The position numbers were made by a program, and so were the translations under genes. Source: an uncultured Actinomycetota bacterium (GTDB lineage Bacteria > Actinomycetota > Actinomycetes > JAHEKZ01). Taken from it: a DNA stretch of 64,000 nt. The notes beneath the pieces were generated by a model. That model was not told where the DNA came from. It saw only the letters and a program-made list of their open reading frames with translations, and searched no databases. Shown here piece by piece: positions 25,455 to 32,371 of the stretch (positions are counted from its first letter, which is position 1; each line of letters opens with the position of its first letter). The DNA lies in assembly GCA_963718235.1 (NCBI GenBank), contig CAVQYR010000001.1, positions 1,088,001 through 1,152,000 on the forward strand, given 5' to 3'.

Positions 25455-25520
25455 ATCGTCGCGCCGTTGGCTGCTCCTGTCCAACAGATGTTCTAGGCCT
25501 CTTGCATCAATTGCCTCGAT
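25455..25520 (-). promoter_or_regulatory. Candidate LysR-activated promoter of the monooxygenase
   Basis: ATC-N9-GAT, 13 nt, AACATCTGTTGGAC, 18 nt, GACGAT; same layout as 32306-32371. Confidence 0.7.
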
Positions 25521-25597
25521 GCAACGACGCGCCCCCGGCCGGGATCAGGTCTCCAGCCCCGGCACGTGCTCGTTCTCGAACGCGACGTGCTGCCCAC

Positions 25598-26608
25598 TCA
25601 TCGTGGAGTCGCGTCGACCCAGCGCTGGACGCGCTCGACGGTGAACAAGTGGGTGAGGATGTCGTCGAGCCAGAAGACCTTCCGGTCCCGCTCCTCGGTC
25701 GCCAGCGTCTCGTCCAGGGCCTGGACGGCGTAGTGCTCGACGAGGTGCTGCTGGACGGCGAGCACCCCGGCGAACGAGCTCGGCTGCAGCCGGACGGGAG
25801 GGCCGCCGCCCAACTCGTACGCCGCGAGGAAGCCACGAACCTCCCGAAGGGGCACCTCGAACTCCGCAAGCGCACCTGCCAGCTCGCACTCGGCCACCGC
25901 CGGACCGCAGTTCTCCCAGTCCACGACCACGGCGCTACCGTCCGTCCCGAGCAGCACGTTCTGCGGGTTGAAGTCGCGGTGACAGGTCGTGCGTGGACCG
26001 GTGGGTCCCGCGAGCACCAGCTCGTTGGTCGCCGCCAGGTCCGCGACCCGCTGGGCCAGCAGGGCGGCCCACGGGGCCGCCGCGTGGGCAGCCGCCGAGG
26101 CGAGCTCGTCCCAACGTTCAGCGGGCACCGCCTGCGCGAACCAGGGGTCGATCGGCCGGTCGTCGGCGATCGCCAGAGCGTGCAGCCGCCCGAGCAGGTA
26201 CGCCGCCTGGTCGGGAGCAGCGCTGACCGGCCCTGGCAGGAGGTCGACCCAGGTGTGGACCCGCACCTGCCACGCACCAGAACCCGCACGCACGTCGGCG
26301 AGCAGGGCGCCGTCCGGTGTCCGGCGAGGCAGCGGTGTGTGGACGAGCGCGGCGGCTGCCGCACTCGCGAGGCTGGCGTCGACGCGCGCCTCCTCCTCAG
26401 TCCAGGGCTCCAGCAGCTCCTTGACGGCCCAAACGCCGGTGGAGGTCTTCAGGCGCCAGATCCGACCAAGCTCACCGCGCGCCGCGAAGGTCGCCGGTCC
26501 TTCCGGGTGTCCGAGAGCGAAAGCGTCCGCTATGGCGGCGGCGTCCGGCGGCGGAGCGGTGACGGGTACGGGAGGAGGCCCGATCGGGCGCCCGATTGAG
26601 TCGATCAC
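25598..26608 (-). CDS. Aminoglycoside phosphotransferase/kinase-like protein
   Basis: WAVK, CHRDFNPQNVL and VVDWE. Confidence 0.85.
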   Translation of the reverse strand: MIDSIGRPIGPPPVPVTAPPPDAAAIADAFALGHPEGPATFAARGELGRIWRLKTSTGVWAVKELLEPWTEEEARVDASLASAAAAALVHTPLPRRTPDGALLADVRAGSGAWQVRVHTWVDLLPGPVSAAPDQAAYLLGRLHALAIADDRPIDPWFAQAVPAERWDELASAAAHAAAPWAALLAQRVADLAATNELVLAGPTGPRTTCHRDFNPQNVLLGTDGSAVVVDWENCGPAVAECELAGALAEFEVPLREVRGFLAAYELGGGPPVRLQPSSFAGVLAVQQHLVEHYAVQALDETLATEERDRKVFWLDDILTHLFTVERVQRWVDATPR

Positions 26609-26648
26609 CGACTCATCATGGCGGCCCGAGGCGGCCTAGCGTGTGCCC

Positions 26649-27659
26649 ATGACGCAGGATCCGGTCGACGCGCTGCGACGCATCGCGTGCCTGCTCGAGC
26701 GCGAGCAGGCACAGACCTACCGGGTGAGGGCCTTCCGTACCGCAGCGTCGGTGGTGTCAGCACTGCCGCCGGCGGAGCTCGACGCGCGACTGCGGGCGGG
26801 CACCCTGGCCGACCTCAAGGGAGTCGGGCGGGTCACCGCCGAGGTGGTGGCGCAAGCCGCGTCGGGTGAGGTGCCGACGTACCTTGCCGAGCTCGAGGCC
26901 CACCCAGGACCGGACACGGGTTCGGCGCAGCCACTGCTGGATCAGCTGCGCGGCGATCTCCACGTGCACTCCAACTGGAGTGACGGGGGCAGTCCGATCG
27001 AGGAGATGGCCCGCACGGCCGCCGAGCTGGGGCACGCGTACATCGCGCTCACCGACCACTCGGCCCGGCTCACGGTTGCGAACGGTCTGACCCGCGAACG
27101 TCGTCTGCAGCAGCTCGACGTCGTCGCGTCGTTGAATGCCGAGCTGGCTCCCTTCCGGATCCTGACCGGGATCGAGGTGGACATCCTGGACGACGGCAGC
27201 CTCGACTGCGACGACGACGTCCTCGCTCGCCTCGACGTCGTCGTGGCTTCGGTGCACAGCAAGCTACGCATGCCGTCGACGCAGATGACACCGCGCCTGG
27301 TCGCGGCCGTCGCGAACCCGCACACCGACGTGCTCGGGCACTGCACCGGACGCATGGTGGTCGGCAAGGGGCGTCCGGAGTCGGAGTTCGAGGCCGAGCT
27401 GGTCTTCGAGGCCTGCCGGACGTTCGACGTCGCGGTCGAGGTCAACTCCCGCCCCGAACGACTCGACCCCCCGAGGCGGCTGCTGCGCCAGGCCGTCGAG
27501 CGGGGCTGCCGGTTCAGCATCGACACCGACGCGCACGCTCCCGGCCAGCTGGCGTGGCTGCCGTTCGGTGCCGAGCGAGCGGTTGAGTGCGGCGTGACCG
27601 CCGATTCGGTGGTCAACACCTGGGACGTCGACGACCTGCTCGCGTGGACCGCACGCTGA
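26649..27659 (+). CDS. PHP-domain protein with N-terminal PolX-like HhH domain
   Basis: YRVRAFRTAA, LKGVG, DLHVHSNWSDG, TDHS, GHCTGR and DTDAH. Confidence 0.9.
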   Translation: MTQDPVDALRRIACLLEREQAQTYRVRAFRTAASVVSALPPAELDARLRAGTLADLKGVGRVTAEVVAQAASGEVPTYLAELEAHPGPDTGSAQPLLDQLRGDLHVHSNWSDGGSPIEEMARTAAELGHAYIALTDHSARLTVANGLTRERRLQQLDVVASLNAELAPFRILTGIEVDILDDGSLDCDDDVLARLDVVVASVHSKLRMPSTQMTPRLVAAVANPHTDVLGHCTGRMVVGKGRPESEFEAELVFEACRTFDVAVEVNSRPERLDPPRRLLRQAVERGCRFSIDTDAHAPGQLAWLPFGAERAVECGVTADSVVNTWDVDDLLAWTAR

Positions 27660-27707
27660 ACACCGCCGAGCGTGCGTGCTCGCGCGCCGTGCTGCGTGGC
27701 ACTTGCG

Positions 27708-30700: not shown

Positions 30701-31182
30701 CCCTTGGACGCGCCCAGCGCGGCGATGGCGTCGACCAGCTCGAGGCCGGTGCGGACCGCCCGCTCGGCATCGTCCTCCCGCGTGACGGGGGTCCCCCACA
30801 CAGCCATGACCGCGTCGCCGATGAACTTCTCGACGACGCCCCCGTGCCGCGCGATCGCCGTCTGCGCGGTCTCGAAGTAGTCGTCGAGGAGCGCGCGCAT
30901 GTCCTCGGCGTCGCGTTCCTCGGACAGCGTCGTGAAGCCCACCAGGTCGAGGAAGAGGACCGAGACGAGCCGGCGCTCGGTGGTCTGGGACGGCGGGACG
31001 CTCGGCCCCGCGCTCGGGGGAGCCGGTGTCGTCGTCAGGGCGTTGCCGCACTCACCGCAGAACTTGCTCTCCGGAGGGTTCACGGCCGCACAGGCGGGAC
31101 AGGTCCGAGTCAGGGCCGAGCCACACTCCATGCAGAACTTGCGACCTGACTCGTTCTCGGTCCCACATGCCCGGCAGTCCAC
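27708..31182 (-). CDS. Zinc-ribbon + class III adenylate cyclase + AAA/STAND ATPase + TPR-like protein; frameshift near 30690
   Basis: Double CxxC ribbon, LFLDLVGFT and EKFIGDAVMA (ORF 30499-31182) continue as GDMVNTASRL, GIGGIGKS and FEDLQWAD (ORF 27708-30770). Confidence 0.88.
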
Positions 31183-31285
31183 TGACGCCCTCCCGTCGGA
31201 GAGCCACAGCGTACGGCCATCGTCGCGCCGCTACCGGTCATCTGTAAGGTGCCGGCCCGCGGTGGGCCGACGCGAGGAACCGCCC

Positions 31286-32110
31286 TCAGCGGCGGACGAC
31301 CGCCTCGCAGTCGTGGAAGATGCGGTCAGCAGCATCGGCGTTGGCGTTGTCATGTCCGGTGCCGCACAGGATGAAGTCAGTACCGGCGTCGCCCCACAGC
31401 CGGTCCTCGCCGTCCGATCCGCCGACTCGGTCGTCCCCGTCGCCGCCGTGCATCCGGTCCCGGCCCTGCATGGCGACCAAGTCGTCGTTGCCGGTGCCGC
31501 CCCACACCACGTCGTTGCCGAGCCCTGCTCGGATCCAGTCGGCGCCGTCGTTGCCCCAGACGACGTCACGACCGGAATGGCCGTTGAAGAAGTCCGGCCC
31601 CGCCCCGAAGTGGGCGACGTCGTTGCCCTTGTCGCCCAACACGGTCACAGCGAACGTGGCAGGCAGGGTCGAGGTGTCGGTGAAGTCGTTGCCCAGCCTC
31701 GGCCAGATCTCAAGGAGCAGGGGTCGACGCACACTGATGTCTCCGGGAACCCGGCACACCGCGGCGATCCCTACCTTCACCTTCACCTTCTTGCACGCGG
31801 GCGACAGCCTCTTCCACGACCGGGTACCGGTGTCGACGAGGCGCAGCCCGCGGTCAACCAGGGTGACGACCAGGTGGCTGTTCTGCTGTCCGGTGCGGAA
31901 GCGATACCCGAGGTCGGTCTTGGCGAGCATCCCCTGGTCCTTCAGTGGGATGACCACGAACTGACCCATCAGCTCCGTCGTGTACTGGTACGGCGGGCCG
32001 GCGTGGGACCGAGTGGATGTCTCGCGACCGTCGGCGGTACCGGCCGCTAGCGAGGTCATGGTCGCTGCGACGACAAGCGTCGCAGCCGTGAGCGCGGTTC
32101 GTCGAAGCAC
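31286..32110 (-). CDS. Secreted calcium-binding protein with hemolysin-type (RTX) repeats
   Basis: Signal peptide and tandem GGxGxD-like nonapeptides (GGTGNDDLV, GGDGDDRVG). Confidence 0.85.
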   Translation of the reverse strand: MLRRTALTAATLVVAATMTSLAAGTADGRETSTRSHAGPPYQYTTELMGQFVVIPLKDQGMLAKTDLGYRFRTGQQNSHLVVTLVDRGLRLVDTGTRSWKRLSPACKKVKVKVGIAAVCRVPGDISVRRPLLLEIWPRLGNDFTDTSTLPATFAVTVLGDKGNDVAHFGAGPDFFNGHSGRDVVWGNDGADWIRAGLGNDVVWGGTGNDDLVAMQGRDRMHGGDGDDRVGGSDGEDRLWGDAGTDFILCGTGHDNANADAADRIFHDCEAVVRR

Positions 32111-32305
32111 AGTGACCCCCTCGCGTCGACCGTTTCGCTGCCGGTTGGCAGCGGTGGCCGAGAGTCCGACCCGATCGCCGTCGTAACCTAAAGTAAGCGT
32201 TCGCTCACCGAGCGTCACAGCATACACGAAAGAGCCGGAAAAACGGTAGTGGCGCCTCCGGCGGACGCCTCAGTCCCCGAAACCCGGTCAGCGAGCAGCA
32301 TCAAG

Positions 32306-32371
32306 ATCGATCATTCCGATTTTAATGTCCGATAACATCTGTTGGACTTCTGACCCAGCCGCACCCAGGAT
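32306..32371 (+). promoter_or_regulatory. Candidate LysR-activated promoter of the RidA to dehydrogenase operon
   Basis: ATC-N9-GAT (32306-32320), 13 nt, AACATCTGTTGGAC (32334-32347), 18 nt, CAGGAT. Confidence 0.7.

Follow-up and report, generated by a model that had tools for sequence, protein, structure and literature searches.

Two upstream elements in a 64,000-nucleotide stretch of an uncultured Actinomycetota bacterium (GenBank assembly GCA_963718235.1, contig CAVQYR010000001.1; the whole stretch is called the window here, with positions counted from its first letter) are, with high probability, sister promoters of a single regulon for the catabolism of histamine and imidazole-4-acetate, and comparison with related loci suggests that both are controlled by the HinK-like LysR regulator encoded at 38440. 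One element precedes a hinF-like monooxygenase gene on the minus strand and the other precedes the hinL operon on the plus strand, of which the LysR gene is the last member. The hin names of the window genes were assigned from family and gene order.

Two promoters with one layout

The hinF element (minus strand, 25520-25455) consists of ATC-N9-GAT, 13 nt, the 14-mer AACATCTGTTGGAC (25492-25479), 18 nt and GACGAT (25460-25455). On the plus strand (32306-32371), the hinL element repeats this arrangement, with ATC-N9-GAT (32306-32320), 13 nt, the 14-mer AACATCTGTTGGAC (32334-32347), 18 nt and CAGGAT. Both elements and their spacings had been described in an earlier note on this DNA, and a check of both strands confirmed them. 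The 14-mer has exactly two exact copies in the window, which holds 217 repeated 14-mers (9 with a GC content of at most 50%) and 10 occurrences of ATC-N9-GAT; as such components are individually common, it is their in-register combination that counts. Among 595 pairs formed from the 200-nt upstream regions of 35 genes chosen by hand, the hinF/hinL pair ranked second at 24.4 bits (median, 5.5; 95th percentile, 12.3). The hinF anchor box extends beyond ATC-N9-GAT, forming a 7-bp inverted repeat, TTGCATC-N9-GATGCAA.

A box profile learned from related loci without the window ranked the hinF box first and the hinL box second in the 64 kb (19.4 and 15.0 bits), and the full promoter profile of 89 columns gave 37.1 and 27.0 bits for the two sites, with 2.6 bits for the best unrelated window position. 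When the part of the profile downstream of the box was used alone, each site ranked first on its own strand (63,912 positions). The predicted promoter features are as follows.

25502..25524 (core 25520-25506), minus strand: LysR anchor box of the hinF promoter, the top profile site, centred at about -65 from the predicted start
25475..25489, minus strand: second, weaker LysR box ATC-N9-GGA, 31 bp from the anchor and over the -35; sixth in the window at 8.8 bits
25478..25483, minus strand: predicted -35 hexamer TGGACA of the hinF promoter, placed by a register test in relatives
25455..25460, minus strand: weak -10 GACGAT of the hinF promoter, 17 bp from the -35; predicted transcription start near 25448
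32302..32324 (core 32306-32320), plus strand: LysR anchor box of the hinL operon promoter, the second-ranked profile site
32337..32351, plus strand: second, weaker LysR box ATC-N9-TCT, over the -35; 12th in the window at 5.9 bits
32343..32348, plus strand: predicted -35 hexamer TGGACT of the hinL promoter, placed by the register test in relatives
32366..32371, plus strand: weak -10 CAGGAT of the hinL promoter; predicted transcription start near 32378

Most of the 14-mer at 25492-25479 falls inside the second hinF-side box. A third candidate box at 19739-19761 (11.2 bits) was rejected, as it lies inside an nrfD-like gene and reached 2.6 bits on the full profile. A scan for consensus sigma-70 promoters returned no sites between 24000 and 40500, which is uninformative because such a scan is too strict for activator-dependent promoters.

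Promoter anatomy in related loci

The comparative sample comprised the best 80 of 537 confirmed relatives of the window RidA protein from a genome scan limited to 600 candidates, mostly from Actinomycetota; these are close relatives and no census. The hinF gene was found in 56 of the 80 loci, 43 of which have it immediately ahead of hinL and 13 at another place, with orthologs 60-87% identical to the window protein. De novo motif discovery in the 56 orthologous hinF upstream regions, with the window left out, yielded ntgcATCnnttnaannGATgcan at an occupancy of 0.9 (log-likelihood 324, versus 37-42 in three shuffles). This motif is a dyad-symmetric ATC-N9-GAT in which every one of the six core positions carries 1.5-2.0 bits. 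LysR recognition is given as T-N11-A in the cited passages of PMC10912698, and the proposal of the earlier note that ATC-N9-GAT is a site of this type is supported by the symmetric box learned de novo from orthologs, which makes it a probable LysR site.

We anchored 47 of the 56 hinF promoters on the box, omitted the 9 without one and counted offsets from the A of ATC as 0. In the 47 promoters the -35 lies at +37, separated from the box by a fixed 22-bp gap, with variants such as TGTACA, TATGCA, TTTACA and TTGACC. The earlier note had chosen TTGGAC as the -35, with an 18-bp spacer; this register was not borne out, because TGGACA and TGGACT with 17 bp fit the 47 relatives better (on average 3.8 matches to TTGACA at the +37 register versus 2.1 at the TTGGAC register). 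The A at position 2 and the T at position 6 of the -10 are conserved, with a 17-bp spacer in 32 of the 47 promoters, 18 bp in 10 and 16 bp in none, and position 1 is seldom T (2/31 and 3/34). As the -35 and -10 sit at fixed offsets, the box centre would be at about -65 if transcription starts 7 nt past the conserved -10.

GAT recurs at +43, which gives a second box from +31 to +45 lying over the -35, and of all whole-box offsets +31 scored second best, both in 44 training promoters and in 57 other promoters. The shared 14-mer spans +28 to +41, that is, the left half of the second box and most of the -35. As an exact unit, which the earlier note had emphasized, it is not conserved: among 101 related promoters the sole exact copy is in the hinF promoter of locus L020 and most others differ at 5-9 positions, so that we rejected it as a search unit. 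Because the 57 other promoters had been chosen with the full profile, we also ran a non-circular test, for which 86 boxes outside the training set were picked on the strength of the box alone; 47 of these carried the downstream promoter signal, compared with 10 of 16,000 random positions. Markov-simulated DNA (565,442 bases) gave no profile hits of at least 15 bits.

Split and colinear loci

The comparison thus shows one layout (symmetric box, 22-bp gap, -35, 17-bp spacer, -10 without its first T, and a box over the -35), and the whole of it appears before hinL where hinF sits elsewhere. By the full profile at 10 bits or more, hinL carried the promoter in 12 of the 13 split loci and both genes did in 11 of 13, while in colinear loci the counts were 0/43 for hinL and 36/43 for hinF. 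The value of 0/43 is partly trivial, because the DNA before a colinear hinL is coding. In the single split locus without the profile at hinL (L044), hinL follows the histamine dehydrogenase gene.

Counted by the box alone (at least 10 bits; background rate, 2.6% of 2111 windows), the signal was upstream of 46 of the 56 hinF genes, which form the training set, and 14 of the 37 hinL genes without hinF directly before them. It was likewise found upstream of 8/11 histamine dehydrogenase, 10/39 aldehyde dehydrogenase, 2/72 hinH and 1/58 hinG genes, and of none of the 43 hinL genes directly behind hinF. The motif is therefore present upstream of orthologs, the point on which the earlier note had staked its reading.

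A HinK-like LysR as the probable reader

In a comparison with the Protein Data Bank (PDB), the best solved relative of the window LysR was 6M5F (E = 1.2e-67), which is HinK of Pseudomonas aeruginosa in the cited part of PMC11495319; the next named family was OxyR (3e-28). Counting a LysR as HinK-like at 36% or more identity to the window LysR, we found one in 63 of the 80 loci, and its distribution followed that of the motif: 54 loci had both, 9 the LysR alone, 3 the motif alone and 14 neither. A HinK-like LysR thus accompanies 54 of the 57 motif-bearing loci, and 14 of the 17 loci without the LysR are also without the motif. Other regulator-like families in at least 6 loci were two TetR-like ones, assigned by eye (9 and 7 loci), and an unrelated LysR (7 loci). 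Among 21 held-out plasmid regions, the profile was found in all five actinobacterial hin loci, in 4 of 14 proteobacterial loci and in neither of the two loci in which a LysR with 42-44% identity is tied to other genes (highest scores, 0.6 and -0.1 bits). The claim of the earlier note that the LysR at 38440 reads both promoters is accordingly likely to hold, as judged from the motif in orthologs, the likeness to HinK and the 54/57 linkage. Seven loci from Pandoraea and Caballeronia (L043, L056, L057, L073, L078, L079 and L080) carry a hinL about 80% identical to that of the window, with no hinF, hinH or HinK-like LysR nearby.

The genes concerned are given below; the junctions in the run from hinL to the LysR gene are overlapping or short.

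24137..25396, minus strand: hinF-like FAD-dependent monooxygenase, probable imidazole-4-acetate monooxygenase (Pfam flavoprotein domains); likely start, ATG at 25396
32463..32885, plus strand: hinL-like RidA-family protein (Pfam PF01042)
32882..33574, plus strand: hinH-like DUF1028 protein (Pfam PF06267), behind hinL in 71 of 80 loci
33571..34761, plus strand: hinG-like M20 amidohydrolase (Pfam PF01546; TIGR01891 over cut-off)
34751..36841, plus strand: histamine dehydrogenase, an FMN oxidoreductase by Pfam (PDB 3k30, E = 0, 1037 bits; 6de6, 909 bits; trimethylamine dehydrogenase, 524 bits)
36921..38412, plus strand: hinD-like aldehyde dehydrogenase, as two successive halves of PF00171 in different frames with a break near 37610
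38440..39399, plus strand: HinK-like LysR, final gene of the operon (PDB 6M5F)

Passages of PMC6467879 describe HinL as an enamine deaminase in P. putida, HinF as an FAD monooxygenase, and HinH and HinG as amidases. No separate promoter profile hit lies directly upstream of the window LysR gene, from which we infer that it is probably cotranscribed with the operon and positively autoregulated.

Proposed mechanism

LysR promoters are described in the cited passages of PMC11495319 as having an anchor site between -80 and -50 and weaker sites over the -35 and -10. By analogy, a LysR tetramer would anchor at the -65 box, and in the uninduced state its second dimer would occupy the box over the -35 and keep the promoter off. 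Binding of the inducer, for which imidazole-4-acetate is the favoured candidate on the analogy with HinK, would cause a slide of one helical turn to a half-site at about +22, freeing the -35 so that housekeeping RNA polymerase could be recruited to the weak promoter. As the hinL operon encodes both the LysR and the enzymes that produce the inducer, induction would reinforce itself. The sliding step, also drawn by analogy, stands at roughly even odds and is the least supported part of the scheme because the +22 half-site is weak: its left half was the second-best offset, with mean scores of -1.6 and -2.8 bits, and its right half found no match.

Evidence against and alternative explanations

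Several observations weigh against control of both promoters by the window LysR through this operator and mechanism. Ten of the 56 hinF regions lack the box, 9 of the 63 loci with a HinK-like LysR lack a profile hit of at least 15 bits, and the 13 split loci include about 8 from Micrococcaceae, which are not independent. The mean score of the +22 half-site is below zero, and the half-site is poor in both window promoters. A 44% identical LysR paralog sits at a P450/maleylacetate reductase cluster. Finally, 10 of the 14 proteobacterial plasmid loci lack the profile, including two Burkholderia loci (L084 and L096) whose LysR helix-turn-helix is, by eye, closest in look to that of P. aeruginosa HinK; for this reason the operator cannot be taken for the HinK site described in the literature.

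A different signal is seen by eye in nine proteobacterial hinF promoters without ATC-N9-GAT, where TTAG-N7-CTAA is exact in 3 of 9. A motif search in these nine was partly resolved, with a log-likelihood about twice that of shuffled sequences, and we treat it as a lead. In L085, L089 and L094 (also L088, L092 and L093), TTAG-N7-CTAA or its right half lies about 100-125 bp before hinF and is followed by AAATC-TAATTT. On this small sample judged by eye, operator and LysR clade may change together.

Among the alternatives, the one that survives best is that the identity of the 14-mers is a relic of a promoter copied when the operon was split, with no meaning beyond the general motif. The 14/14 identity of the window pair exceeds that of all 64 within-locus pairs in relatives (maximum, 12/14; mean, 6.9), which points either to a copied promoter or to the tail of a doubly constrained stretch; in L020, which has the closest layout, the hinF promoter has the exact 14-mer, from which the hinL promoter departs at 3 of 14 positions. 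However, outside the constrained positions the window promoters are unalike, as a recent copy would not be, and the 14-mer stretch is constrained both as a half-site and as a -35. We regard the copy as possible and rather unlikely; it concerns origin and is compatible with co-regulation by the LysR.

Less likely still, the LysR reads both promoters but responds to histamine, a later ring-opened intermediate or a related N-heteroaromatic compound, or it activates from a single site without sliding. The window LysR is only moderately similar to HinK, the regulon in relatives holds varied transporters and an amidohydrolase, and many LysR proteins deviate from the three-site model according to passages of PMC11495319. 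Against this, the same pathway is indicated by the histamine dehydrogenase gene of the operon and by conservation of the hinF-L-H-G set, the +31 box is conserved across clades, and HinK responds to imidazole-4-acetate and not to histamine in the published excerpts (PMC8231116).

Co-regulation by another regulator, either a HinK-like paralog from another part of the genome or a factor outside the LysR family, appears improbable. HinK-like paralogs do occur at unrelated clusters, so that one encoded elsewhere in the genome could read the window promoters; some loci carry two HinK-like LysRs, and 3 of the 57 motif-bearing loci show none within the DNA examined. On the other hand, the two paralog loci without hin genes had no profile hit, a T-N11-A dyad at -65 is a LysR signature, and the box sequence seems, from the proteobacterial promoters viewed by eye, to vary with LysR clade. 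The window LysR also clusters with the LysR proteins of L020, L003 and L040, loci whose promoters rank among the closest to the window's; this comes from a FastTree tree with weak deep support, which was used solely for nearest neighbours and from which P. aeruginosa HinK was left out.

LexA (SOS)-type boxes read GAAC-N4-GTTC, and the hinF and hinL sites match 7 and 6 of these 8 positions, but just 2 of 47 related promoters reach 6/8 in that register and the genes downstream of the 14-mer are catabolic, so that we rejected this very remote reading. A chance coincidence in GC-rich DNA, for which the abundance of repeated 14-mers and ATC-N9-GAT in the window and the empty consensus promoter scan might speak, has a negligible probability, having been refuted already by ortholog conservation (de novo motif, profile ranks, split loci and the non-circular test).

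Wider regulon and a probable HpaB-family replacement of hinF

A search of 89 loci (1,609,882 bases) with the full profile produced 132 hits of at least 15 bits, 69 of them before known hin genes (45 in the training set) and 63 elsewhere. Transport proteins were encoded behind 41 of the 63 other hits (17 amino-acid permeases, 14 NCS1, 7 MFS and 3 NMT1 binding proteins), and the remainder comprised 8 flavin reductases, 1 HpaB, 2 amidohydrolases, 2 aspartase-type lyases, 1 LysR and 8 without a family. In Micrococcales loci (L018:5905-7536, L026:5930-7591, L033 and L039), the promoter is also found ahead of genes for NMT1-type ABC binding proteins and for an Amidohydro_3 protein, which may point to the import of an imidazole or histamine derivative from further up the pathway, and to its hydrolysis.

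An HpaB-family gene lies directly before hinL in 15 of the 80 loci. No locus has both it and hinF, and 9 have neither; this exclusion applies within the locus DNA examined, and hinF may lie elsewhere in genomes with the HpaB-family gene. The HpaB-family unit stands under a hin-type promoter in 9 cases.

L003:8496-10001, L061:7918-9977, L095:2576-4656 and 13 further loci: HpaB-family monooxygenase and flavin reductase in the place of hinF

These proteins resemble the two-component flavin monooxygenases HpaB/HpaC in their Pfam domains (HpaB_N/HpaB) and accompanying flavin reductase, with PDB 2yyk at E = 1.3e-44. They differ from them in occupying the place of hinF before hinL-hinH under the shared promoter and in scoring far below the TIGR02309 cut-off: the L003 protein reached 210 where the NCBIfam equivalog cut-off is 480, and 156 where that of TIGR02310 is 885, and it thus falls short of the equivalog level for 4-hydroxyphenylacetate 3-monooxygenase HpaB. 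Relatives at E <= 1e-100 occurred in 15 plasmid records; in 7 of these a HinK-like LysR lies no more than about 4 kb away, and one plasmid region has the order reductase-HpaB-RidA-DUF1028-LysR-deacetylase-aspartase. We lean slightly towards a reading in which actinobacteria and, in part, proteobacteria possess an undescribed HinK-type regulon whose operator is its own and whose promoter signature exposes another, unrelated kind of imidazole-4-acetate monooxygenase, the HpaB-family two-component one.

Neighbouring genes and other features of the window

Four genes lie between the two promoters, and homologs of them were absent from all 80 related loci.

25598..32227: four unrelated genes, encoding a phosphotransferase, a PHP-domain protein, a cyclase/AAA protein and a calcium-repeat protein (Pfam)

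Regulation of these genes by the LysR was considered and found no support, with full-profile scores of -26 to -1 upstream on their own strands, and by sequence they probably lie outside the regulon, although the calcium-repeat gene runs divergently from the hinL anchor box. In the hinL leader, a 17-codon open reading frame (ORF; 32413-32466, plus strand) has a good ribosome-binding site, GAAGGA, and a stop overlapping the hinL start; a leader peptide, translational coupling or an indel are possible alternatives. The frame break near 37610 in the hinD-like gene is either a mutation or an assembly error. A frame-shifted appearance is also seen at the start of ORF 27708-30770 and at the end of 18537-19967, and with several such ORFs assembly indels are possible. 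Downstream, an agmatine deiminase-like gene (39440-40465, minus strand) converges on the LysR gene; it has a 35% identical relative in one of the 80 loci and no promoter hit. GC content, about 0.62-0.68 over 1-24000, climbs to 0.68-0.73 close to 24 kb, just where hinF ends, which suggests a boundary between regions of different origin.

The pair ranked first among the 595 upstream pairs is a second duplicated element of about 90 bp (20895-21000, minus strand, and 23410-23515, plus strand). It includes a near-perfect palindrome around GGTGATATCACC (23414-23429) and precedes nrfC/nrfD-like genes and a lipoprotein gene, flanking a NarL-type two-component system, whose response regulator probably targets it as a promoter. 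This element had no Rfam match, and none was found in the 64-kb window at the gathering score.

Comparison with known systems

A regulon split between separate promoters is not new, contrary to what the earlier note implied, because HinK of P. aeruginosa is already described as binding a motif common to the promoters of hinD and hinF and as controlling its own expression (passages of PMC8231116). The window resembles the HinK regulon of P. aeruginosa PAO1 and P. putida U in its LysR, its hinF/L/H/G/D-like genes and its separate units with one motif, and the regulator is itself inducible there (PMC8231116, same passages). It differs in its high-GC, actinobacterial-type setting with nearest relatives in Actinomycetota, and in its entry step, which is a histamine dehydrogenase where Pseudomonas uses the HinC aminotransferase. 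The split runs between hinF and hinLHG-dehydrogenase-hinD-hinK in the window, and between hinFLHG and hinDAC in Pseudomonas. The operator may differ as well, as loci with the most HinK-like helix-turn-helix lack ATC-N9-GAT; the P. aeruginosa HinK motif itself was not found in the cited passages of PMC10912698 and PMC10926688.

Like the three-site LysR promoters of BenM, DntR and OccR, those of the window have a symmetric T-N11-A anchor, predicted to lie near -65, and weaker, less symmetric sites over the -35, although the BenM box is ATAC-N7-GTAT and that of the window ATC-N9-GAT. Classic LysR regulators are divergent from their targets, whereas the window LysR is the last gene of its target operon (and divergent in many relatives). 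The putative hin pathway of Brevibacterium is similar in its actinobacterial hinF, L, H, D and I homologs and in growth on histamine; excerpts of that account (PMC6467879) deal with protein homologs alone, name no operator and leave regulation open. A literature search, with subscription papers and supplements outside it, turned up neither a hin operator from actinobacteria nor an imidazoleacetate monooxygenase of the HpaB type. As far as this search shows, the actinobacterial operator, its regulon (transporters and aspartase) and the probable HpaB-family replacement of hinF are new.

Overall, sequence comparison supports well a real and mechanistically ordinary HinK-type LysR regulon; as the mechanism is a textbook one, the surprise is modest. 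The analysis provides a precise predicted operator and promoter layout for histamine and imidazoleacetate catabolism in Actinomycetota. The signature serves as a regulon finder, pointing to candidate histamine/imidazoleacetate transporters from four families, an aspartate ammonia-lyase, an amidohydrolase and a probable non-homologous replacement of HinF. The LysR/promoter pair could be used as a part for a histamine-metabolite biosensor, and the regulon is relevant to amine removal in fermented foods.

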